From positions 7,805-71,804 of the forward strand of contig JAZOVJ010000054.1 in the NCBI GenBank assembly GCA_045658645.1: a stretch of 64,000 nucleotides of DNA. Direction: 5' to 3'. Under the pieces are notes generated by a model that ran no database searches, was not told the DNA's origin, and was given only the letters and a program-made list of their open reading frames with translations. The position numbers and the translations under genes are program-made. Positions within the stretch are counted from its first letter, which is position 1. Each line of letters begins with the position of its first letter. Of the stretch, positions 4,525-60,767 are shown piece by piece. The stretch comes from Clostridia bacterium. Its GTDB lineage: Bacteria; Bacillota; Clostridia; UBA1381.

Positions 4525-4968
4525 ATGGTTAATTTTGTTGGAAAATATCCAAGACAATTAGATGAACGCGGAAGATTTATATTGCCTGCAAAAATCAGAG
4601 AAAAACTGTCAGGCACAGTCTATATAACACAGTCACCTGTTGATGCGTGTTTAAATCTTTACACAGAGGACGAATGGGAAGCGATTGCACAAAAAGTGAG
4701 GGCACTTCCTACGGTGACTGACAGAAACGCTGCAGCACTCCAGAGAACACTTTTCGGAAATGCCATTTCCTGCGATTTGGACAAGCAGGGAAGAATTCCG
4801 TTAAATCAGGAGCTTATAGCCTTTGCGAATATGAAGAAAGACATAATGCTTGTAGGCGTTAATGCAAAGCTTGAAATCTGGGATTCAGAGGAATGGAACA
4901 AGGCAAGCCAGGCGATTGATGCCGATAGTGTTATTGAAGGTATTGCAAAATACGAAATCAATATATGA
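4525..4968 (+). CDS. mraZ: Transcriptional regulator MraZ
   Basis: Two SpoVT/AbrB-like repeats (DERGRFILPAKIREKL and DKQGRIPLNQELIAF). It is the first gene of the dcw cluster. The start is taken at MVNFVGKY (ATG 4525). Confidence 0.9.
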   Translation: MVNFVGKYPRQLDERGRFILPAKIREKLSGTVYITQSPVDACLNLYTEDEWEAIAQKVRALPTVTDRNAAALQRTLFGNAISCDLDKQGRIPLNQELIAFANMKKDIMLVGVNAKLEIWDSEEWNKASQAIDADSVIEGIAKYEINI

Positions 4969-50245: not shown

Positions 50246-50599
50246 TTATTCCTTCCCTTTGTTTTTCGCCGTTGTAACCGATGCAATAAGTTTTCTTCTT
50301 ATTGTTCCGCACTTGTTAATCGATGATTTATATGTGCTTTCATCAATCTTATTCTTACGATATAATAATTCTAACCAATACTCAGTTTCAAAGCTCTCTT
50401 TTAATGCAATTTCTAATTTGTTTATAAAATCTGCCTTGCTTTGAGCATATTTTGCTTCGTGAAGATTTGCACCGATCGAAGAGGAGCATCTTAATAGTTG
50501 ATTTACATAAACAGAACACCCATTGATGTTGTCGCAAATATCGGATATTTCGATTGCAAAATTTATGGTGTCCTCTCTTAATAAGTTTTTCTGATCCAT
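50246..50599 (-). CDS. Four-helix-bundle protein (TIGR02436 / 23S rRNA intervening-sequence protein family; the DGR Avd proteins are structural relatives)
   Basis: 117 aa. NQLLRCSSSIGANLHEAKYAQSKADFINKLEIALKESFETEYWLELL is the family core motif. AAAGGAG RBS. It lies 20 nt upstream of the TraX gene. Confidence 0.8.
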   Translation of the reverse strand: MDQKNLLREDTINFAIEISDICDNINGCSVYVNQLLRCSSSIGANLHEAKYAQSKADFINKLEIALKESFETEYWLELLYRKNKIDESTYKSSINKCGTIRRKLIASVTTAKNKGKE

Positions 50600-50615
50600 A
50601 ATCTATTCTCCTTTG

Positions 50616-50792
50616 TCGATATACACGCTTTGCGTGTTCGATATATTTTGCTTCGCAAAATTCGATATAACCTCGCTATGCTCGGTTTCGATATGATATA
50701 AATCTCGTTGCCGTAAGGCAACATATCGAGCCGTCAGGCATATCGAGTTCCTATGGAACATATCGAAAATCCCGCGAGAGATTTATATCGAT
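50616..50792. repeat. Array of 8 heptamers: 4x (T)TCGATAT, then 4x the inverted ATATCGA(A), with each interval itself a different short hairpin
   Basis: The plus-strand heptamers start at 50616, 50638, 50662, 50688, then 50723, 50740, 50760, 50785. The spacers are hairpins: CACGC-TTT-GCGTG, TTTTGC-TTC-GCAAAA, GTTGCC-GTAA-GGCAAC, GCC-GTCA-GGC, GTTCC-TAT-GGAAC and AAATC-N8-GATTT. There is a 12-nt long-range complement between 50695-50706 and 50778-50789. No ORF covers the region. Confidence 0.8.
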
Positions 50793-50824
50793 GAATCTGT
50801 CTGCACAAAAAGTGCGACAGATTC
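50793..50824. other. 13-bp stem-loop flanking the heptamer array
   Basis: GAATCTGTC(T)GCAC-AAAAA-GTGCGACAGATTC with one bulged base. No adjacent U-run on either strand. Confidence 0.7.
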
Positions 50825-50934
50825 GACGTGATACCCTTTGTACAAACTTGTGGTGTCGTGCCATAAAGCCATATGTATCAAGGAATTGTGCCAATTTATA
50901 ACTTTGCAAGATTTAGCAAATTTTATCCGTTTGA

Positions 50935-50979
50935 GACCACTCAATCAAGGAAGAAATCAACTCCTCCGATTGAGTGGTC
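50935..50979 (-). terminator. Long-stem hairpin 7 nt beyond the stop of the scaffoldin-like gene (possible terminator or processing site)
   Basis: A 12-bp perfect stem, GACCACTCAATC / GATTGAGTGGTC, with a 21-nt loop. The downstream U-tract is poor. Confidence 0.4.
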
Positions 50980-50985
50980 GAGTTG

Positions 50986-53900
50986 TTATTTTACAGCTGT
51001 TATAGGCTTCAAGCTATTCATATCTTCCCAAATCATAAGTTTATAAGTTGCATAAGCCTTTTTGTCATAGTCGATGCTTAAATCAACCTTACCAGGCTTA
51101 ACAGTTATATCCTTTGGCATAAGCTGAACCATTCTGCCATCACCATCATAGAAAGCGATTATTGCTTTTGCAGATTGTTCTTCATAAGAATTATCAAAGT
51201 ACAATTCACAAGAGAAGTTGGTATCGCCTACAGCCTTATTTGTCGTGATATAATCATCACCTAAAACATAGCCTGTTTCGTAGTTTACGGCTACATTTTC
51301 TATCGTCTGATTACAGAAGTTGTTTTCTGCAGATTTAATGCTGATAGGTGAAATAGATGTGTCTGTAGGGTTCTTATAACGAACCTTGACGGTAAAGAGT
51401 TCACCGTCTGCTACTGCATTGCCTTCCTGATAGCAGAATACAATCAAGCCTTCATCATTTTCCTGACCTAAGTTTGTGCCAAAGTTTTCGGGGTTGATAA
51501 ATTCTGATGGAGCGATGCTTACAATCTCAATGTCATCAGCATCGTAATCAAGTACAAATCTGTATGCCGCAACACCCGGATTATTCTTAATATAAACAGG
51601 AATATCCGCTTCATTTGCATCATTTACCGAAGCGGTACCAATGGTTACTGTTGGTGTTTCCGGAACATCAGTATTCAATGACATCAGCGACATAAGTTCA
51701 ATGCCCGTCCAACCGACAACGTATTGTGCTAATTTTACCACGTCTTTGATATCAACTAAATCGTCATCAGTAACATTTGCAGCTTCCATCTGACGGTCTG
51801 TGAAATCTGCAAGACCTATCATATGTCTTGCAAGTAAGGTTAAGTCATAAATATTAACATCGCCGTCTTCATAGATATCACCGGGCAAAGGTTCTTCAAC
51901 GGTTACTTTTGATGATTCTGTGTAGAGCGCAATGTTTTCGCCTGCTGTGTTGCAGATATCCTTTGCTCCGTATTCGATGGAAATATCAGAGTAATCACCG
52001 AGTTTCGCTGTTTCTGCTACTTTGAAATCAATAGTAAATAATTCGCCGTTAATATCAATATCAGTATCACTATTTGAATACCAAACTACGTTGAATTCAG
52101 TTCTGTTTTCATCATCAAGGTTAGTTGTAAGTGTACCACCAAATTCTTCATTTGCAGTTACAGATACAGGTGTCAAAAGAGTATCATCATAATTAATGGT
52201 AAATTTATATCCTGATATGCCAGGGTTTCTGATGATGTTTACTTTAGCTTTTGCTATTCCTGCTGGGAACGATTTAACATTGTCTACAATTACAGATGGA
52301 CCGGATGCAGATACAACTTTAACAACACATTCATGTGAAAGTCCGTTTGTGGTTTTTGCTTTAATCGTTGCAAAACCCTCGCCAACAGCTGTTATAACAC
52401 CATTTTTGTCAACTGCTGCAACATCATCATTGGATGATGTCCATATCAGAGTGGTTTCAGTTGCGTTTGAAGGTAGCATAGTTGCAGTTAATGCTTTAGC
52501 GTCTTCAGGTGCAAGTGTTATATATGTATCTGAAAGAGTTAGCGAGGTTGGCTCAATCGGTGTAGATTTTACTGTTACATAACAAGTTGCAGTTAATCCG
52601 CTTGAGGTTCTTGCAGTAATTGTTGCTGTTCCTACTCTTTTTCCAGTAACAAGCCCAGTACTTGATACAGTTGCGTAAGTTGTTGACGAGCTTGACCATG
52701 TGATTGTATCTGTTGTATCAAGTGGTAACATAGAAGCACTTAATTGATACGTAGAATTCACATAGGTTGTTATGCGAGGTTTATTCACTGTAACACTTAT
52801 TGAGGGTTGTGTTACTGTCACTGTACACTGTGCAGTTATCCCACTTGTTGCAGTTGCGGTAATATAAGTTATCCCAATTTTATGTGCCGTAATTTTGCCA
52901 TTCTGGTCAACTGTTGCAATACTTTCATCCAAACTACTCCAGGTTATATTGCCTTCATAATCGGAAGGGGATAATGTTGCTGATATAATATCACTACTAC
53001 CAATTTTAATAGATTTGGATGTAGCAGAAAGTGTAATTGAAGCAATAGGAGCGGATACATTAACAAAACATTCCGCTCGAAGATTGCTTTGAGTTGTAAT
53101 TGCATAAATTTTTGTTGTTCCTCTTGCTTTAGCTGTAACATATCCATTTTGATCGACTGTTGCAACTTTTTCATTTTCGGAATACCATTTAACCGTTTCA
53201 TTTGCGGCAGTAGGATTTTGGATTGTCGTTAAACCATAACTTTGTCCTTCGTTTACATTGATTTCAGACTTTGAGAGAATCATTGAAGAAGCAGTTCTAT
53301 AAACATAAACCATACAATTTGCCTTCATTCCATTTGCATTTGTTGCTGTTATGGTGCACGAGCCAATGGAACGAGGTGTTACTATGCCTGTGGATGATAC
53401 CGTTGCAATTGAAGTATCATCACTTGCCCAAGTTACAGATTCTTTTGTATTATCAATGTATGCGTTTAATTGTTCAGTTTCACCTTCATTCATAACAACT
53501 ATACATTTGTTAATGTCTATATGTCTAGGTAAGTCTACTAAGCTTGGAAGTCCATTATTAATATTATCATTAATACACCATTTTTCTTCAGAAAATTTGT
53601 AATTAGATAACGTCATATCATCTATTGAATCATAATATATTGTCGCTTCTTTTGAATCTTTGTGTGGTGATATATCTCCTAAATGATAACTATTAATATA
53701 ATTATTTGATATATTGTCATAGCCTCGTTCAGCATTGTTTTTTCCATAAGATTTAACAATGCCAACATTTATTGAGTTTTCAACTGGCTTTGAGGAAGAA
53801 CTATCGCAATTTACAATTCCACTAGAGTATACTAATCCCTTTGCATAAACCATTCCAGAATTAAAAGAATCACTTATATATCCTCTCTGACTAGTGTGCA

Positions 53901-55068
53901 TATAATCATAGTTCTCTCCGGCTATTCCTCCCACGTATATGCTATATTCAGATGATGTGATTACTATAATCTTTCCAGAATTAAAACAACTGCGTATATA
54001 TCCATTTCTTTCTCCGCCGTTATTACCAGCTATTCCGCCTACAGCACAACCAACTGTTGCAGCACTTTCTATAGTACCAGTATTTATGCAGTTATCAATA
54101 CTTCCGTTATTTAAAACTGCAATACCGCCTGCATCATCTGAACATATTATGTTTCCGTTATTTATACATTTTTGTATAGAACCCCTATTTTGTCTTGATA
54201 TACCTCCTGCGTTTCCTCCTTCAATATTTCCATAACCAACACAATCTTTTATAGTACCGTTGTTCTCAGCACAAATACCGCCTGCATAGTTGTAACCTTC
54301 AACAACACCATAGTTTTCACAATTAATTATAGTACTATTATTTTCTCCACATACACCACCCGTTGTTTTTCCATCTATATATCCGTTGTTAGAACAATTT
54401 TTTATATTTTTTATGTTTTTTCCTGCAATACCACCATTTACTGTTCCAACCACATTTCCCGTGTTCTGAGAATTTAGTATATCTCCTGCGTTGTATCCAA
54501 CAATGCCACCACCTGTTGAGCTAGGAGAGGAAACATAGCAGTTGTTGTATAAATCATCTACTATTCCTAAACTATATCCTACAACACCACCTACATTTAA
54601 GTCAAAACTGTGATAAACTCCTTTTACATTACCACTTACGGAGCAATTGTAAACATTGCTATTTTCTTCAGCATACCCAACTAATCCACCTACATAACGA
54701 TAACCAGACGCATCAACATTGGTAAGATTGAGATTCTTAACAGTACCTTCAAGATAACCTACAAAACCAACATACTTATTTTCGGGTAAATTAATATTCA
54801 GGTTACTGATGGTATATCCTGCGCCATCTATTGTGCCCGTAAATGCGCCTTCGGTTTCGTTGCCGATAGGTTCAAATGCTATACCTGACATATTGATATT
54901 GTTTGTTAGTTTGTAATATCCGTCTAAATCATCATGAATCTTTGCAATATCACTTGCAGATGAAATTAAATATGGGTTTGATTCTGTACCTGTTCCACTG
55001 ATAGCAAATGCAGGAACAGACGCTAAAAGCATAGATATTGTAATTATAATTGATATTATCTTTTTCAT
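50986..55068 (-). CDS. Giant secreted scaffoldin-like protein: signal peptide, GLUG-like Gly-rich repeat region, 5 Big_2 Ig-like domains, cohesin, dockerin, cohesin, C-terminal beta-domain
   Basis: Signal peptide MKKIISIIITISMLLASVPAFA. Repeated GG(I/L/V)(V/A)G units over residues ~125-390. Five modules of ~80 aa with the (V/I)TW(A/S)S(S/D)..(I/V)ATV...G.(V/I)TA...G...ITA signature over residues ~518-918. Cohesin-like modules at residues ~924-1057 and ~1138-1262. A dockerin-like duplicated segment, GDIYEDGDVNIYDLTLLARHMIG...ANVTDDDLVDIKDVVKLAQYVVG, at residues ~1062-1119. AGGAGG RBS. Confidence 0.8.
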   Translation of the reverse strand: MKKIISIIITISMLLASVPAFAISGTGTESNPYLISSASDIAKIHDDLDGYYKLTNNINMSGIAFEPIGNETEGAFTGTIDGAGYTISNLNINLPENKYVGFVGYLEGTVKNLNLTNVDASGYRYVGGLVGYAEENSNVYNCSVSGNVKGVYHSFDLNVGGVVGYSLGIVDDLYNNCYVSSPSSTGGGIVGYNAGDILNSQNTGNVVGTVNGGIAGKNIKNIKNCSNNGYIDGKTTGGVCGENNSTIINCENYGVVEGYNYAGGICAENNGTIKDCVGYGNIEGGNAGGISRQNRGSIQKCINNGNIICSDDAGGIAVLNNGSIDNCINTGTIESAATVGCAVGGIAGNNGGERNGYIRSCFNSGKIIVITSSEYSIYVGGIAGENYDYMHTSQRGYISDSFNSGMVYAKGLVYSSGIVNCDSSSSKPVENSINVGIVKSYGKNNAERGYDNISNNYINSYHLGDISPHKDSKEATIYYDSIDDMTLSNYKFSEEKWCINDNINNGLPSLVDLPRHIDINKCIVVMNEGETEQLNAYIDNTKESVTWASDDTSIATVSSTGIVTPRSIGSCTITATNANGMKANCMVYVYRTASSMILSKSEINVNEGQSYGLTTIQNPTAANETVKWYSENEKVATVDQNGYVTAKARGTTKIYAITTQSNLRAECFVNVSAPIASITLSATSKSIKIGSSDIISATLSPSDYEGNITWSSLDESIATVDQNGKITAHKIGITYITATATSGITAQCTVTVTQPSISVTVNKPRITTYVNSTYQLSASMLPLDTTDTITWSSSSTTYATVSSTGLVTGKRVGTATITARTSSGLTATCYVTVKSTPIEPTSLTLSDTYITLAPEDAKALTATMLPSNATETTLIWTSSNDDVAAVDKNGVITAVGEGFATIKAKTTNGLSHECVVKVVSASGPSVIVDNVKSFPAGIAKAKVNIIRNPGISGYKFTINYDDTLLTPVSVTANEEFGGTLTTNLDDENRTEFNVVWYSNSDTDIDINGELFTIDFKVAETAKLGDYSDISIEYGAKDICNTAGENIALYTESSKVTVEEPLPGDIYEDGDVNIYDLTLLARHMIGLADFTDRQMEAANVTDDDLVDIKDVVKLAQYVVGWTGIELMSLMSLNTDVPETPTVTIGTASVNDANEADIPVYIKNNPGVAAYRFVLDYDADDIEIVSIAPSEFINPENFGTNLGQENDEGLIVFCYQEGNAVADGELFTVKVRYKNPTDTSISPISIKSAENNFCNQTIENVAVNYETGYVLGDDYITTNKAVGDTNFSCELYFDNSYEEQSAKAIIAFYDGDGRMVQLMPKDITVKPGKVDLSIDYDKKAYATYKLMIWEDMNSLKPITAVK

Positions 55069-55081
55069 CTGTTTTAACCTC

Positions 55082-58000
55082 CTATTTCTGTGTTACAGTT
55101 CCTGATACATTGCTATCGTTTTTGTTATATTCGCCATAACAGTTTACAGAACTGCTGAAAGTTATTCCTTTACGGGAATTATTTAATAAATTTAAGTTAT
55201 TAAAGTTTGCACCACTGCAAGAAATGATTTGTGGGGTTTTGCCGATTATATTAACATTCTCAGGCTTATTTACAGTAAGAGAACTACCATACAAATCACC
55301 CTTAATATTAATCGTTCCGCTTCCGCTTAATTTTGTAGAATTCATTACTGCATCACTTCCGAGAGTTAATTCGCCATTAACAATAATATCAGAATAGGAT
55401 GAAATACTTGCTAATTTCTTTACTGTTAGAGAAGAAGTTTCATCAATCTCGATTGTTTTGGAACTTACACTTGCAGTAAGACGCTTATTTATAACAAGTT
55501 TTGCACCATTTATCAACTTGATTCCTGCTGTTATATTTGCGGTATCTACCGCAACAGTACATCCATCTATAATTAAATCTGTTGTCTGATTCAATGTAGA
55601 ATAAGTCTTATTTGATGTAATTACTCTGCCGGAGGATATAATAATTTTTGTGTCATCAACCGTTACACCATTGTTAGAGTAGGTGTCTGCAACATTGATA
55701 TTTGTTTTCAGATTTATTTTGCCTTTTCCATTCAACGTAAGATTATCAGTTGAGATACTGTTTCCACTAATTTCTGTTAATGATGCCGAACTCAAACTCA
55801 AATCATCAATATCAATTGTTCCGTTATTATAAATATCATGCGGCGTTGTGATTGAACCTCCGCTGATAGTTCCAGAATTAACAAATTCTTTATTGGCAGT
55901 TATTAGGCAATTGTTTATTGTACTGCTATTTTGTAGAATGCCTTTTACTGCAATTGGAGTAGAATTACCTGTTATAGTATTACTGTTTGTAAACCCAGAA
56001 TTGCAGATAACTGAGCTGCTTTCGTCAGTTGTTAAAGGAACAGATAGTGTAAATTTGCCATCAACATTCAATTTTGCATTTTCAAGAGTAAGATTTCCGC
56101 TATTAACAGTTAAATATCCTCCAATATCTGTATCTTGTTTTATTGTATTGGTTGCGGATACTATCACATTACCTGTCAATTTTGAGGGCAAATCACAAGA
56201 ACTCTGGATTGTAACATCGCCCTGATATGTATTACTTCCAAATTTACCGCCAGATAAAAGTGTCATCCCTATTCCGGATGTTTTGCCGTAGGTGTTGGTT
56301 AGTGTACCGCTGACATTTACAGTATTTGAAACCTTTACTCCTTTAGGATTGGTATTTGTAAAGTTTGTAGTGTTCAGAGTCCCGTTAATATTCTGTTGCA
56401 GTTTGCCTTGAGTAATGATGTTATTGAAGGTATTTGTACCATTTACAGTGATATCTCCGTCTGAATAATAGGTATTTTCATTTTGCGTAACTGTTCCGCC
56501 AAAATAGGAATCAGCAGTTACTGTTACATCTCCATTTAAATTAAGTGTTCCGCTGCTTTGAGTAAGACCACCAGTAATACTTACATCATCAAGGTTTACT
56601 GTGTTCAGGGTTTTGAGTGTTCCGCCAAATGTCATTGCTCTATCAAGAGTAATTCCATCAAGGGTAAGCCCACTATTATAATGGTCACCTATAATGCTCC
56701 CTGTAGATTTCAGCGTAGTATTTTGACCATTAGTCACTTTTGAAGAGGTATTCTTAACTGTTCCTGAAACATATATTGTTCCTGGCTGATTTGCAGTACC
56801 AGTATTATTGTACACAAGGTTAGTAATATTTAATGCACCACTTAAATTCTGCGTATCACTACCCGAAACACATAAATTTTGAATGACGCCACCGCCACCA
56901 GTGGAGTCACCCTTTAAATATATTGTGCTACCATTGATTGTTCCCTTAACAGATAGATTTTCACAATATATAGGAATTTCTAAAGTCACAGTGCCACTTG
57001 AGTTATCAAAATATTTACATGCTAGATTATCTCTATGGGCAGATTTAAGAGTACCACCATTTAAGTGCAAGGAGTTAATATAAGAGGTATTTGCGCCCAA
57101 TGTAGTAGTACCACTGTTTTGGGTATATTCAGAAATGCTTGTACTACCAGCAAACTGAACCAACCCACCATTATTAACTATATACGGAATATAAGCATTA
57201 GGGATATTATTACTCATAAGAACTTCTCCACCATTATTCACATAAATACCACCTGCAACTCTATATTCAAGTTCTCCGATTCCTCTCGTGTTATCAGCAG
57301 TTGTAAGAATACCATACAAACCGCCTTTAGCATCTTCATAATATATAGTCAATCTTTCACCTTTATTAACAGTTAAACTGTTTGAAGTAAAAGGCATCGC
57401 CGATGCGCCAATTAAAGCATCAACCCTATACTGATAAACAGTACCAAGATAAGAAATTAAAGATTCATCTCTATTAAGTGTTCCACTTGATAAAAGTCTG
57501 CATAATGGAGAATCCCACTGACCTTCTATCATTTTATAAGCAACTGTTTCACCGCGAAGCCTTAATTTTTGAATCATTAACAAGTCATCAAGAACATTCT
57601 CGGCATTTTCTTCAGTTTTGTTTGCAAGATAGGTTTGAACATCTTTATTATAGGTATCAACAGCAACTTTGATTATTTTTTCAAGATATTTTAATTCATA
57701 AGTCTTTTTACAAACATCGCCAAAACTCATAGTTTTATCTGCACACCAAGCAGCAATTTCAACCACGTTAACCGATTTTGCCAATACAGTACTTGCAGCA
57801 GTCTTTGCGAGACCTGCGTTTGAATATTCCCAAGCCATATCAAGATTTTCACATATGAATTTCTCGACATAAGGGGAAACCTTACCAGATACTTTATCTA
57901 TAGCCCAATCTCCAAATTCATTTACAGCACCTGCATTTCTCAAATACTGCATCAGGGTTTCATAACCCATAAGTTTTGCATTACCCGCTTCACCAACTTC

Positions 58001-59056
58001 ATCAGCAAAGGTATTTAATATAGAATTAAGTTGTGTGTTTTTACTGTTATCAGACATTCTGGTAAGAGTGTCGCCAACAGCCTCCTTCTGTGTTCCTATT
58101 GAATTGATAAACATATAGGTAGAAAGAGTTTTTGATACTGTGCTTATAGAAGAACTTGCACTCTTAACAATACCCAAAGTACCATCATCGACAAAGAAAG
58201 TAGGAGCATAATAAACTATATCAGATGATATTTCTGCATTAGCAGATTCAAATCTATCCATTTGAGAAACCATTGCAAGAGCAGTAATAAAAGCAGCGAG
58301 GTCTTCGGCATCATCAGTACCCTGAATATCAGCAAAAGAACCCAAAACACTTTCAACACTATCGGTATAAGGAATAAGGAACTTATTGTAGTAATCCATT
58401 CTGTCATCAAAAGTGTCATCATTCATATGATTAGCAGATGCATCCGCTTTAAAGAAACTTGCAAAATCTTTAAGATTTTTAAGACCTTTATCAAGTCTTT
58501 CAAGGTTTTCTAATTCAATTTCTTTTGTAGAAAGAGTTGTACCATCAGAAGAAGTATAATCGGTTGCAAGAACTTCTTTCAATATACTTTCATACTGAAG
58601 CTCACCCACGCTATATGTAAGGTCATCCATAACAGTTTGAGCATCACTACTGAAGATAGATGCTAAATCTGCCGCAAAGGAAGAAACCCAATCAGTAGCA
58701 TGCTGAACATAGTCATCACCATTATATACTTTTTCCATAATATCCACAGCAAAAGAATACGCAAGATTAAACTCTGGATTATCTGTATTCCGATATTGCT
58801 CTAATAGGTTATCCATCATAGCATTTTCATTACCAATGTTATTAACCAGTGCATGAGGATTTGTAGAGAAGTCTGTTTTATAATTTGTACCGATTAAGGT
58901 ATCAATTACAAACTGCCTGTCCCCATATAATATATTTTCAAGTATTGCCATATTAGGCGAAACATAAGAGGTTGCCGCACTTGAATATATATTAAAAGTA
59001 AACAGACTTGCAATAATACTCAAGACAACAGCAATACTTATAAGTCGTTTTTTCAT
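55082..59056 (-). CDS. Giant secreted protein: signal peptide, ~530-aa helical domain of unknown function, ~760-aa beta-helix-like degenerate repeat region
   Basis: Start taken at MKKRLISIAVVLSIIASLFTF...SSA (GGAGG RBS, ATG 59056). The C-terminal two-thirds consists of degenerate G/N/T/S-rich ~20-25-aa units (..NNGG.L.....T.....N.GT..L..). There is no LPXTG, dockerin, SLH or cohesin motif. It lies 13 nt upstream of the scaffoldin-like gene. Confidence 0.75.
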   Translation of the reverse strand: MKKRLISIAVVLSIIASLFTFNIYSSAATSYVSPNMAILENILYGDRQFVIDTLIGTNYKTDFSTNPHALVNNIGNENAMMDNLLEQYRNTDNPEFNLAYSFAVDIMEKVYNGDDYVQHATDWVSSFAADLASIFSSDAQTVMDDLTYSVGELQYESILKEVLATDYTSSDGTTLSTKEIELENLERLDKGLKNLKDFASFFKADASANHMNDDTFDDRMDYYNKFLIPYTDSVESVLGSFADIQGTDDAEDLAAFITALAMVSQMDRFESANAEISSDIVYYAPTFFVDDGTLGIVKSASSSISTVSKTLSTYMFINSIGTQKEAVGDTLTRMSDNSKNTQLNSILNTFADEVGEAGNAKLMGYETLMQYLRNAGAVNEFGDWAIDKVSGKVSPYVEKFICENLDMAWEYSNAGLAKTAASTVLAKSVNVVEIAAWCADKTMSFGDVCKKTYELKYLEKIIKVAVDTYNKDVQTYLANKTEENAENVLDDLLMIQKLRLRGETVAYKMIEGQWDSPLCRLLSSGTLNRDESLISYLGTVYQYRVDALIGASAMPFTSNSLTVNKGERLTIYYEDAKGGLYGILTTADNTRGIGELEYRVAGGIYVNNGGEVLMSNNIPNAYIPYIVNNGGLVQFAGSTSISEYTQNSGTTTLGANTSYINSLHLNGGTLKSAHRDNLACKYFDNSSGTVTLEIPIYCENLSVKGTINGSTIYLKGDSTGGGGVIQNLCVSGSDTQNLSGALNITNLVYNNTGTANQPGTIYVSGTVKNTSSKVTNGQNTTLKSTGSIIGDHYNSGLTLDGITLDRAMTFGGTLKTLNTVNLDDVSITGGLTQSSGTLNLNGDVTVTADSYFGGTVTQNENTYYSDGDITVNGTNTFNNIITQGKLQQNINGTLNTTNFTNTNPKGVKVSNTVNVSGTLTNTYGKTSGIGMTLLSGGKFGSNTYQGDVTIQSSCDLPSKLTGNVIVSATNTIKQDTDIGGYLTVNSGNLTLENAKLNVDGKFTLSVPLTTDESSSVICNSGFTNSNTITGNSTPIAVKGILQNSSTINNCLITANKEFVNSGTISGGSITTPHDIYNNGTIDIDDLSLSSASLTEISGNSISTDNLTLNGKGKINLKTNINVADTYSNNGVTVDDTKIIISSGRVITSNKTYSTLNQTTDLIIDGCTVAVDTANITAGIKLINGAKLVINKRLTASVSSKTIEIDETSSLTVKKLASISSYSDIIVNGELTLGSDAVMNSTKLSGSGTINIKGDLYGSSLTVNKPENVNIIGKTPQIISCSGANFNNLNLLNNSRKGITFSSSVNCYGEYNKNDSNVSGTVTQK

Positions 59057-59072
59057 TTGATTACCTCCATTT

Positions 59073-59106
59073 AAAAAATGCGTAGCCCGTATTTCAGAGC
59101 TACACA
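59073..59106 (-). terminator. Imperfect terminator-like hairpin between the methyltransferase gene and the first giant gene
   Basis: On the minus strand, TGTGTAGC-N12-GCTACGCA (7 of 8 positions complementary, the eighth a G-U wobble) followed by T6. It ends only ~10 nt before the GGAGG RBS of the 55082..59056 gene. Confidence 0.4.
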
Positions 59107-59153
59107 CGAAAAACATACGTTCTCTGACATAAATCGTTTCTTCATATTTTGGT

Positions 59154-60767
59154 TTATATCATTCTGAAATGCTCAAAAGCATCTTTAATTGCATCCACTT
59201 TATGCTTGGGACAATTAGGTTGTTTATAATCCTCGGATGGTTTATTATAATTTTCTCTTTCTGTTATCCCACATTCTTGTTTTACCTGTGCGATATTTAA
59301 GGATGAAACTTTAAAACCGTATTTATTCAAAACATGTTCTTTTACTTGGTTATATGTTGCCCTGGCTTTTGGTGCAGTTACTTCAAGTTCATCCAAATCA
59401 AGTTCAACTGTTATAGAGTCACTTTCTTTCAGTTTGGTCAAAAGAGCAACAGTCTCAACATGAACAGTATGCGGGAACATATCGACTGCCGTTACTGCTT
59501 TTGCAGCGTAACCATTTTCTGTCAAAAATCTCGCATCACGGGCAAGAGTTGCAGGGTTACAGGACACATACACAATCCTTTCAGGCTTTGCGGAAACGAT
59601 TGCAGAAAGCGTTTTTTCGTCACTGCCCTTTCTCGGAGGGTCAAGGATAACGATGTCGGGGGATATATTGTCTCTTAAAAGTTCAGGCACAATATCCTCT
59701 GCAGCCGAGCAATAGAACTTTGAATTTTCAATGCCGTTTCGTTTGGCATTTTCTTTGGCGTTCTCAATTGCCTCGGGTACTATTTCCACACCGATAACCG
59801 CTTTGGCGGTTTTTGCGGCAGTAAGTGAAATCGTACCAATTCCGCAGTAAATATCCAAGACGGTATCATCTTTTTTAATATCCGCAAACTCGATTGCCTT
59901 TCCGTAAAGTTTTTCGGTCTGCTGTGGGTTTACCTGAAAGAAACTATGCGGGGAAATCTCGTAGGAAAGACCGCAAAGTGTGGCAGATAACACATCTTTT
60001 CCCCATAAAGTCACATTTTTATCTCCAAGCACAAGATTTGTACGTTTTTTGTTTATATTAAGAATAATGCTTGAAATTTTCGGTGAAACAGCGGTGATGC
60101 TCTCAATCAGTTCTTCGCTTTTCGGGATGCTGCCTGCATTTGCCGAAATCACAACCATAGCCTCATTCTCTGTGGTACGAAGAAAAGCTCTGCGCATAAT
60201 CCCTTTGTGTTCTGCCTCATCATACACCGAAATGTTGTACTTTTTTATATGAGCCGAGATAGCGTTCATAATCTCGGTTGTTAAGCTGTCGCCTAAAAGG
60301 CAATCGGAAAGCGGGATAACATCGTGGCTTCTTTGTCTGTAAAAGCCCCAGCTGCCGTCAGGCGCGAAAGGGAACACCATTTTGTTTCGGTAACGTGATG
60401 GTTGCTCCATGCCGATAATATCAGGCTCCAAATCAATTTTGCCAAGACGTAAAAGAGCGTCACGGACGATGTTCTTTTTGAACTCAAGCTGGGTGCTGTA
60501 ATCAACTGTCATAAGCTGACAGCCACCGCACTTTGCAAAATGCCTGCAAGGCGGCTCTGTTCGAAGCGGTGACGGGGTAATAACCTCCACTGCTTTGGCA
60601 TAGCCATAGTTCTTATTTGTCTTTAAAACCAAAAGCGTAACCTCATCGCCGGTTACTGTTTGCGGTACAAAAAGAGTGTATCCGTCAATTCTGGCGATGC
60701 CGTTGCCGTCAGAGGATAGAGTTTCAATTATTGCTTTATATTTATGATTTTTCTTTACGGGAATAAT
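59154..60767 (-). CDS. 23S rRNA (uracil-C5)-methyltransferase, RumA/RlmD/RlmCD family (TRAM domain, 4Fe-4S Cys cluster, SAM methyltransferase, ~90-aa C-terminal extension); start codon unresolved
   Basis: FAKCGGCQL cluster, DPPRKG, and VSCNPATLARD. The ORF-track start (TTG 60632) truncates the TRAM domain, which continues in frame upstream (KKNHKYKAIIETLSSDGNGIARIDGYTLFVPQTVTGDEVTL). No ATG, GTG or TTG is available there, so the 5' end given (ATT 60767) is a guess. Confidence 0.8.
   Translation of the reverse strand: MIPVKKNHKYKAIIETLSSDGNGIARIDGYTLFVPQTVTGDEVTLLVLKTNKNYGYAKAVEVITPSPLRTEPPCRHFAKCGGCQLMTVDYSTQLEFKKNIVRDALLRLGKIDLEPDIIGMEQPSRYRNKMVFPFAPDGSWGFYRQRSHDVIPLSDCLLGDSLTTEIMNAISAHIKKYNISVYDEAEHKGIMRRAFLRTTENEAMVVISANAGSIPKSEELIESITAVSPKISSIILNINKKRTNLVLGDKNVTLWGKDVLSATLCGLSYEISPHSFFQVNPQQTEKLYGKAIEFADIKKDDTVLDIYCGIGTISLTAAKTAKAVIGVEIVPEAIENAKENAKRNGIENSKFYCSAAEDIVPELLRDNISPDIVILDPPRKGSDEKTLSAIVSAKPERIVYVSCNPATLARDARFLTENGYAAKAVTAVDMFPHTVHVETVALLTKLKESDSITVELDLDELEVTAPKARATYNQVKEHVLNKYGFKVSSLNIAQVKQECGITERENYNKPSEDYKQPNCPKHKVDAIKDAFEHFRMI

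Follow-up and report, generated by a model that had tools for sequence, protein, structure and literature searches.

A dispersed heptamer-and-hairpin element of gut and rumen Clostridia found between rlmD and a four-helix-bundle gene

The window analyzed here is a 64-kb stretch (64,000 nucleotides) of DNA from a member of the Clostridia, whose minus strand carries, from position 50824 down to 50616, a succession of short hairpins interspersed with eight copies of one heptamer. This stretch is a copy of a structured element that is widespread among Clostridia of the gut and rumen and has not been named so far; it is almost certainly real and under selection, and a member of a new family. In its conserved setting, the element occupies the space that separates rlmD from a gene coding for a four-helix-bundle (4HB) protein, and it belongs to a multicopy dispersed family that is not private to the window locus. 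Its stems swap sequence among relatives yet stay paired, which supports a single-stranded nucleic acid fold rather than a double-stranded operator.

RESULTS AND DISCUSSION

A family of elements in gut and rumen Clostridia

Relatives were collected by a pattern scan for three spaced TCGATAT words in one genome per species, which returned at least 120 loci, and by a metagenome scan anchored on GATTTATATCATATCGA...ATATCGA, which added 53 further loci (labels of the form L followed by a number denote loci from the pattern, metagenome and homologue searches). The parsed loci gave 63 distinct full elements. An earlier annotation of the window made from its letters alone (the sequence-only reading) had proposed a covariance model as a check, and the model built here, R1, detects approximately 90 elements, partial and second copies counted. 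All of them show a common layout and come from Clostridia metagenome-assembled genomes (MAGs) or gut and rumen metagenomes, the carriers being uncultured Clostridia MAGs from animal and human gut and rumen (Oscillospiraceae, Acutalibacteraceae, Christensenellaceae, and Ruminococcus). With R1, the minus strand of the window scored 162.4 bits (E = 2e-37), compared with 79.4 bits for the plus strand, a result that is partly circular because the model alignment includes the window sequence, and relatives outside the training set (such as L306, L307, L311, and L290) reached 153 to 168 bits. Since the approximately 90 loci have different spacer sequences, the array is not a strain-specific low-complexity duplication, one of the outcomes that the earlier annotation had named as refuting; no tandem repeats were found in the element either.

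Rfam 15 contained no family matching at the gathering threshold in the window and none on the element in 18 member loci, and a literature search found no description of it, in agreement with the first impression that it was no named RNA family. BLAST searches of plasmid and phage collections gave no match to the element. A scan of viral contigs returned nearly exclusively simple tandem repeats, together with three genuine elements (L138, L150, and L156), and a viral origin was rejected on these grounds.

Anatomy of the window copy

TCGATAT and its inverse, ATATCGA, occur at 14 sites over both strands of the window (7.4 ± 2.9 in shuffled sequences), eight of which lie within 50616 to 50791, four direct and then four inverted; no second array of this kind was found in the 64 kb. 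Read along the minus strand, four UCGAUAU words (h1 to h4) precede four AUAUCGA words (h5 to h8), and the complete order is P0, h1, hpA, h2, hpB, h3, hpC, h4, hpD, X, h5, hpE, h6, hpF, h7, hpG, h8, and CAAA. All seven intervals are hairpins, with stems that abut the heptamers with zero linker bases. The spacing between heptamers is 17 to 26 bp in the window and varies far more widely in other loci.

The first feature, P0 (50793 to 50824; minus strand, as all that follow), is a 13-bp hairpin by folding, with one bulge, and ends 1 nt before h1; in most relatives, P0 has a stem of at least 7 bp and ends 0 to 2 nt before h1. It is followed by h1 (50785 to 50791), hpA (50767 to 50784; AAAUCUC-loop-GGGAUUU, with the family-wide consensus AAAUCYC..GRGAUUU), h2 (50760 to 50766), hpB (50747 to 50759; GUUCC-AUA-GGAAC), h3 (50740 to 50746), hpC (50730 to 50739; GCC-UGAC-GGC), h4 (50723 to 50729), and the central hairpin hpD (50707 to 50722; GUUGCC-UUAC-GGCAAC). 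Then come X (50695 to 50706; GAGAUUUAUAUC), h5 (50688 to 50694), hpE (50669 to 50687; AACC-GAGCAUAGCGA-GGUU), h6 (50662 to 50668), hpF (50645 to 50661; AUUUUGC-GAA-GCAAAAU), h7 (50638 to 50644), hpG (50623 to 50637; ACACGC-AAA-GCGUGU), and h8 (50616 to 50622). The last heptamer is followed, as in most relatives, by CAAA (50612 to 50615) and then by CAAAGGAGAAUAGAUU, the ribosome-binding site of the 4HB gene (50600 to 50615 with CAAA). The window copy therefore has the 4+4 heptamers with abutting hairpins, long-range helix, P0, and CAAA after h8 that characterize the family. Small open reading frames (ORFs) of 48 to 53 aa overlap it.

X is the 3' strand of the long-range helix, whose other strand is made of h1 positions 3 to 7 and the 5' arm of hpA (50778 to 50789), with 12 of 12 pairs formed in the window. 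As the 5' arm of hpA can pair with either partner, hairpin A and the long-range helix are mutually exclusive. Most of this anatomy had been described correctly by the sequence-only reading: the eight heptamers were reproduced at every coordinate, their spacing is as uneven and unphased as stated, both here and in relatives, and the perfect 12-nt complementarity and the capping hairpin are both present. Six of its hairpin intervals also stood. The seventh (50669 to 50687), regarded as pairing only weakly, is instead a conserved stem of 4 to 5 bp with an 11-nt loop (GAGCAUAGCGA), and it covaries in the family, where the loop GAGCNNAGCGA recurs. In the structure that we refer to as the ladder, the UCGAUAU words would zip onto the AUAUCGA words as four nested 7-bp rungs (h1:h8 to h4:h5), so that the hairpins, which have no linkers, would become part of three four-way junctions, stacked and perfectly paired.

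Covariation of the hairpins and of the long-range helix

The ladder structure was evaluated on a MAFFT alignment of 56 relatives against 500 shuffles. Paired cells amounted to 93.2%, versus 79.9% in the shuffles, so that stem pairing is kept across the family and the single-stranded fold anticipated by the earlier annotation gains support. Double-change cells numbered 506 (146 in shuffles) and the covariation score was 0.364 (0.121 in shuffles), values that none of the 500 shuffles reached, and slid controls scored 0.02 to 0.08. Hairpins A to G were part of this test, and every one of them has compensatory changes, with covariation in four of four stem pairs of hpB and in all seven pairs of hpF; the alignment is poor in hpD. 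In an alignment-free version, with pairs set by distance from the heptamers alone and 1,000 shuffles, hairpins B, C, E, F, and G were 96 to 100% paired at depths 1 to 4 (for G, 83% at the fourth); a single position could show as many as six pair types, and no shuffle attained the observed value. An independent RNAalifold run found compensatory changes in 30 of 49 pairs. Folding energy in the window was far below that of shuffled sequence on both strands (z = -6.8 and -7.3).

The long-range helix behaves in the same way, with 97% of cells paired in the family and both sides changed in 7 of the 12 pairs. In four loci (L066, L079, L099, and L106), h1 reads UCGAGAU and X carries AUCUC, while h8 remains AUAUCGA, which indicates that h1 pairs with X and that the compensation does not occur in h8. 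Kissing loops between the two halves were rejected, since no element-specific loop complementarity was detected, the A-E pair alone being marginally above shuffles. One locus (L251, 815 to 981) has h1-hpA fused straight to AUAUC-h5, having lost what lies between the 3' arm of hpA and the X segment identical to it, and a partial second copy follows; this variant represents either recombination between internal direct repeats or an assembly artifact.

Heptamers, rungs, and variant arrays

The heptamers are near invariant, even where the search pattern did not demand them, and their variation is limited to position 1 of UCGAUAU and position 7 of AUAUCGA. The sequence-only reading had offered two topologies for them, nested 7-bp rungs or single-stranded words between hairpins. 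The ladder was the unconstrained minimum-free-energy fold in 16 of 57 cores, and by this modeling the rungs seem thermodynamically reasonable. Rung transitions that keep a wobble pair and those that break the pair, tallied from pair types, were nearly balanced (approximately 10 versus 8). In a single locus (L150), GCGAUAU occurs four times together with three copies of AUAUCGC, and this is the single clear signal that heptamer complementarity matters. We put formation of the rungs in cis at somewhat below an even chance.

Two kinds of variant array were found. Four loci (L032, 1334 to 1524; L060, 15 to 205; L107, 7791 to 7933; L150, 1428 to 1571) have four AUAUCGA words, a short loop, and four UCGAUAU words, with hairpins throughout, as if the standard element had been circularly permuted; in L107, an hpE-like hairpin follows the first AUAUCGA. 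Half arrays, made of four UCGAUAU words and their hairpins without the AUAUCGA half, start at L006 3219, L048 4532, L051 1753, L078 1038, L087 2868, and L098 621 and 1017, the last two being in tandem, 396 nt apart. Some half arrays run straight into the ribosome-binding site and ATG of other genes (L006 and L048). The idea that the heptamers mimic a T-loop (UUCGA), as a substrate of RlmD/TrmA-type enzymes, was discarded because they are not in closed 7-nt loops.

Association with rlmD and the 4HB gene

In the window, rlmD (59154 to 60632, minus strand) codes for the 23S rRNA uracil-1939 C5-methyltransferase (TIGR00479 rumA equivalog, 413.7 bits against a cutoff of 183.6; PF05958), and the 4HB gene (50246 to 50599, minus strand) codes for a protein of 117 aa (PF05635, 1.2e-20; TIGR02436, 8.9e-24; PDB 2RLD, 2e-22). 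The order rlmD, element, 4HB was found in six of six homologue contexts (L121, L294-300, L304, L306, L307-309, and L311), and likewise in three loci found by pattern (L071, L081, and L260). Outer neighbors differ in every homologue context looked up. Among all pattern-found loci, 9 of 10 4HB genes begin right after h8. These counts bear out the placement of the element as a minus-strand leader of the 4HB gene. Its association with flavodoxin, TraX, and the giant scaffoldin-like gene, also drawn in the earlier annotation, turned out to be incidental and was rejected, because every other locus has different neighbors; on the upstream side, it is rlmD that is conserved.

The element is closely fitted to both genes. 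The 4HB ribosome-binding site begins 4 nt past h8, and (C/U)AAAGGAG precedes the 4HB start in L306, L307, L311, and L061. On the other side, the rlmD frame extends into P0, whose 5' arm provides the codons after an HVE motif, and reaches its stop codon within P0/h1 or immediately ahead of it. The 4HB proteins are 78 to 83% identical where the adjacent RlmD proteins share 35 to 43% identity. More than 7,900 4HB homologues had E values of 1e-5 or below among the 8,000 candidates scored, and the best 120 are 79 to 94% identical. Many database 4HB entries (P0004, P0006-P0010, and others) are 40 to 70 aa longer than the window protein. In the sole case checked (L306, 2501 to 3067), the extra length corresponds to the ORF running upstream into the ladder, which is stop-free in one frame. 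The longer entries look like a systematic misannotation, and the dispersed family matters for MAG annotation. No match to the 4HB protein was found with PADLOC.

Three loci depart from the simple arrangement. The lineage of L304 (2230 to 2860) has lost the 3' half of the ladder (h5 to h8) and carries a mutated h1; it retains the 4HB gene, whose final part overlaps the beginning of an HNH endonuclease gene. In L311 (2313 to 2485 and 3432 to 3604), a pair of co-oriented ladder copies brackets the 4HB gene together with one unknown ORF, and in L260 (500 to 674 and 1 to 108) another such pair brackets the 4HB gene.

Dispersed copies

Dispersed copies are located 2 to 70 nt behind the stops of unrelated housekeeping genes and behind tRNA operons. 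Among the top 25 families listed for 79 flanking genes, nearly all Pfam families were seen once and none was transposase-like; a flanking gene common to loci was found in two locus pairs only. Elements that are 90 to 97% identical have unrelated flanks (L249/L280, L095/L271, and L252/L273), and when such paralogous copies are compared, similarity sets in at P0 and runs as far as h8+C or for up to approximately 110 nt beyond it. The P0 core ATTGTGC..GCACAAT is common to the rlmD-linked element of L294, where it codes for L-L-C, and to dispersed copies in L255, L248, L282, and L011. This shared core suggests descent of the dispersed copies from the rlmD-linked form. Several loci have more than one copy (three in L028; two in L083, L044, L093, L109, and L311), and copy pairs also occur within the same MAG (L021/L120, L043/L099, and L005/L100). 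One copy follows a five-tRNA cluster (L055, 2956 to 3378), another follows one tRNA (L063, 1958 to 2043), and in L109 an S-adenosylmethionine riboswitch lies between two copies (4753 to 4853).

Strand and polarity

In relatives, the two strands usually differ by approximately 70 to 100 bits in R1 score, which shows that the polarity of the element is fixed. Where the neighboring genes are in tandem, eight elements run in the gene direction and one runs against it; 22 of the 35 elements lie between convergent genes, where orientation is uninformative. The stem pairs comprise 1,674 Watson-Crick, 16 G-T, and 6 A-C pairs, and the ratio of G-U to A-C is 11:2 in the 3' half. GNRA loops are concentrated there (16 versus 1), and hpD has a UNCG-type loop, UGCG, in 19 of 56 elements. 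Many hairpins of the 3' half read GCGAAGC.

Rho-independent terminators follow h8+CAAA in many copies. An own sigma-70 promoter was rejected: a scan of the window was at chance level (4 sites versus 4.3 expected), and most copies are too near the upstream stop codon to have one. In L024, L061, and L083, boxes resembling TATAAT precede P0 and overlap its stem. Taken as sequence evidence, these features make us lean toward an element that acts as an RNA of minus-strand polarity. At the same time, the low proportion of G-U pairs and the loop arrangement considered below keep a DNA-level or two-strand role alive.

Comparison with known systems

By analogy, the element would be most like a REP/REPIN-style dispersed repeat and an Avd-style protein-RNA pair at once. 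Repetitive extragenic palindromes (REPs), bacterial interspersed mosaic elements (BIMEs), and the REPIN-RAYT systems are found in Proteobacteria, with RAYT genes bracketed by REPs. The likeness includes dispersed, multicopy, structured extragenic repeats at 3' ends and between convergent genes, a short conserved word beside a variable palindrome, inverted units, and one conserved, vertically inherited gene that is flanked by them. In contrast to REPs and REPINs, each unit here has eight heptamers and eight hairpins of fixed identity plus a covarying long-range helix, P0 lies outside the outermost heptamer, the host belongs to the Clostridia, and the linked gene codes for a 117-aa four-helix bundle and no HUH/Y1 transposase. 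A miniature inverted-repeat transposable element, or another transposon with heptamers as terminal inverted repeats, is disfavored, as homology starts at P0, outside h1, and no target-site duplication is visible.

In diversity-generating retroelements (DGRs), the protein Avd binds RNA encoded beside it. PF05635 includes Avd (PMC10053308), and a DGR, with Avd, TR/Sp RNA, and reverse transcriptase, likewise places a PF05635 protein beside a highly structured noncoding RNA (PMC10053308; 10.1101/2023.10.23.563531). The DGR RNA lies downstream of the protein gene, whereas the element lies upstream. A DGR with 4HB as Avd and the giant gene as its target was rejected: no direct repeat of at least 45 nt that could serve as a template/variable repeat pair was found in the 64-kb window, no reverse transcriptase was found among the eight neighboring ORFs (TraX, flavodoxin, LepA, TsaD, the giant genes, and RlmD among them) or the 4HB neighbors in six other contexts, and the giant genes are absent in L121.

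PF05635 ORFs also occur inside intervening sequences of 23S rRNA, from which the Pfam name originates. Here, again, a member of the family is in or next to a stably folded, sporadic RNA segment, with rlmD as a thematic link to 23S rRNA. The element differs in that it is not within an rRNA gene (the Rfam search found no rRNA in the window) and has no single long RNase III stem. The last heptamer with its next base (50615 to 50622), AUAUCGAC, is also an 8-mer of Escherichia coli rrl 23S rRNA, inside AAGAGUUCAUAUCGACGGCGG, which we take to be the helix 89 region. Such a match of 7 to 8 nt is not significant alone; both flanking genes, through RlmD and the 23S rRNA intervening-sequence protein family, point to 23S rRNA.

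The only Rfam signal on the element was Gut-1 (RF01706), with 18.4 bits and E = 0.95 against a gathering threshold of 50. Gut-1 resembles the element in having human-gut metagenome sequence only and a short conserved linker between variable hairpins (PMC2864571), but the match involves only two hairpins, on the opposite strand, and the linker is GAAAU, not UCGAUAU. A type III toxin-antitoxin array like ToxI was also rejected: the spacers all differ, whereas ToxI has near-identical tandem repeats of approximately 36 nt ahead of an endoribonuclease toxin gene, and the 4HB protein had no PADLOC match.

Possible role and alternative explanations

The reading that we prefer, at about an even chance as judged from sequence evidence, is that the element is an RNA domain of the rlmD-4HB transcript, a hairpin array or ladder that would be the partner of an Avd-like protein, with hitchhiking copies in other 3' untranslated regions (UTRs). 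Minus-strand transcription would yield the element as an RNA domain whose hairpins would fold during synthesis, before the rungs zip up; the long-range helix would be an alternative state, with h1 withdrawn from the rungs. Such a compact domain would probably be stable and resist nucleases, closing the upstream message and standing at the head of the 4HB message, and it would probably be the RNA partner of the 4HB protein. Units running from P0 through h8 and CAAA would spread behind unrelated stops, riding in 3' UTRs. For binding of the element RNA to the 4HB protein, the argument is one of analogy, and we propose it tentatively, as possible rather than probable. It is conceivable but unlikely that ladder RNA, Avd-like 4HB, and perhaps RlmD make up a hitherto unknown ribonucleoprotein system of 23S rRNA biology, with stacked perfect four-way junctions as a natural "RNA origami" raft of four helices side by side, copies pairing in trans via their heptamers, and the processed unit (P0 to h8) copied into new 3' UTRs through an RNA intermediate with an Avd-like cofactor.

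Several observations weigh against the RNA-domain reading. G-U pairs are approximately 1% of stem pairs, which is low for RNA, and the 5' half shows no G-U bias (15:13 against A-C). The loops of the two halves mirror each other, with U..C in the 5' half (UUC, UGC, and UNNC) and G..A in the 3' half (GAA, GNA, and GNRA), and GAA/GNA triloops closed by C-G are classic stable DNA minihairpins; no explanation tested accounts for the mirror loops. Each helix is equally possible on the opposite strand or in single-stranded DNA. As for the rungs, covariation is nearly absent, they would be disrupted by several of the heptamer variants, compensation for the h1 variants occurs in X and not in h8, and the existence of UCGAUAU-only arrays means that cis pairing cannot be essential everywhere. 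Regarding the protein partner, most dispersed copies have no adjacent 4HB gene, and a rough count of residues by eye puts the 4HB protein close to neutral, whereas Avd is basic.

Many of the same observations favor the main rival to the RNA reading, which we nevertheless consider unlikely: a DNA-level repeat, similar to REP/REPIN or to a miniature inverted-repeat element, with the heptamers as recombinase or nuclease sites in both orientations, palindromes that fold as single-stranded DNA or cruciforms, and RNA structure as a by-product. It would accommodate the almost purely Watson-Crick stems, the GAA/GNA-rich mirror loops of the two halves, an architecture that is identical read from either strand, and invariant heptamers with one concerted, complementary change (L150). 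The 90 to 97% identical copies in unrelated flanks, the multiple copies per locus or MAG, the frequent position between convergent genes (22 of 35), and the bracketing of 4HB by two copies in L311 and L260, as RAYT genes are by REPs, also fit. However, the copied unit runs from P0 to h8+CAAA or later, so that the heptamers are not its termini, and neither target-site duplications nor, among the flanking-gene families listed, a transposase-like family was seen. A DNA repeat would also leave aside the fixed polarity (the canonical strand usually scoring 70 to 100 bits higher), the 11:2 ratio in the 3' half, and the maintenance of the rlmD-element-4HB order where RlmD proteins share 35 to 43% identity.

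Less probable still is a protein-sponge or platform RNA in which the hairpins form and the heptamers stay single-stranded as an array of binding sites for a sequence-specific RNA-binding protein. CsrB/RsmZ small RNAs are protein sponges with many copies of one short word, and they resemble the element in having a repeated short word between or on hairpins; the element differs in having a word and its exact complement in 4+4 order, no GGA motif, and a location mostly in operons or 3' UTRs. A sponge would explain why the heptamers are conserved in sequence and not merely in pairing, why half arrays without AUAUCGA exist, some as leaders of other genes, and why arrays can be circularly permuted (L032, L060, and L107); the weak Gut-1 match has a like grammar of short linkers between variable hairpins. 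Yet UCGAUAU and AUAUCGA differ for a single-strand reader and are exact complements, changed together in L150, h1 pairs with X, and linker-free stems are a requirement of perfect four-way junctions. Besides 4HB, no candidate binding protein was found.

We give little credit to a bidirectional 3'-end module, that is, a REP-like termination or mRNA-stabilizing structure with no specific partner. It agrees with the position of copies 2 to 70 nt past stops, between convergent genes, and after tRNA operons, with equivalent hairpin arrays on both strands, and with the terminators that often follow, but it leaves the invariant heptamers, the covarying long-range helix, and the coupling to the 4HB start unexplained, and, in the window, hpD alone is terminator-like. 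An array of double-stranded operators bound by a transcription factor, which the presence of eight identical short sites, in both orientations, ahead of a gene might suggest, or a chance or low-complexity duplication is hardly credible given the spacing (17 to 26 bp here and far more variable elsewhere), spacers that keep their hairpin potential by compensatory change, needless in a duplex operator, approximately 90 loci with different spacers, and the lack of tandem repeats.

The element has consequences for a protein family that the papers searched treat almost solely as the Avd of DGRs. It gives PF05635/TIGR02436 a testable candidate partner, a 180-nt structured element directly upstream, together with a neighbor, RlmD, that is a 23S rRNA m5U methyltransferase, and the older unexplained observation of PF05635 ORFs in 23S rRNA intervening sequences becomes experimentally approachable. 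Compared with Rfam, the architecture is new in its complementary invariant heptamers, linker-free junctions, alternative long-range helix, and permuted and half variants, and the rungs, if they form, would be a rare natural case of serially stacked perfect four-way junctions. The family may also be the first REP-like structured repeat with dispersed copies to be reported from Clostridia of the gut and rumen.

An extra block between rlmD and the element in the window

In a 99.5% identical relative (L121), rlmD, the element, 4HB, and TraX follow each other with nothing between. The window has an extra 8.6 kb (50832 to 59439) between rlmD and P0, with two giant genes, one with Big_2/cohesin domains (50986-55068) and one with no Pfam match (55082-59116). 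Their absence from L121 indicates that the scaffoldin-like gene is not part of the system. The block is flanked by a diverged repeat of approximately 24 nt (59440 to 59463 and 50808 to 50831), each copy coding for H-V-E-(T/S)-V-A-L, and the sequence comparison indicates that recombination at this repeat inserted the block (or deleted it in L121). A relic of rlmD persists next to the element (50783 to 50833, minus strand): its translation gives the last 16 codons, YHVESVALFVQTDSSI*, with the stop TAA spanning the h1/hpA junction, and its equivalent in L121 is the genuine rlmD 3' end.

The window RlmD carries a C-terminal tail of approximately 90 aa (LTKLKESDSITVELD...FEHFRMI; 59154 to 59440), with no Pfam or NCBIfam match and not present in the RlmD of L121 and L294, which may be a read-through into the inserted block. 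Just past the stop of the giant gene, at 50935 to 50979, a perfect 12-bp inverted repeat (GACCACTCAATC / GATTGAGTGGTC) is probably the terminator of that gene, separate from the ladder.

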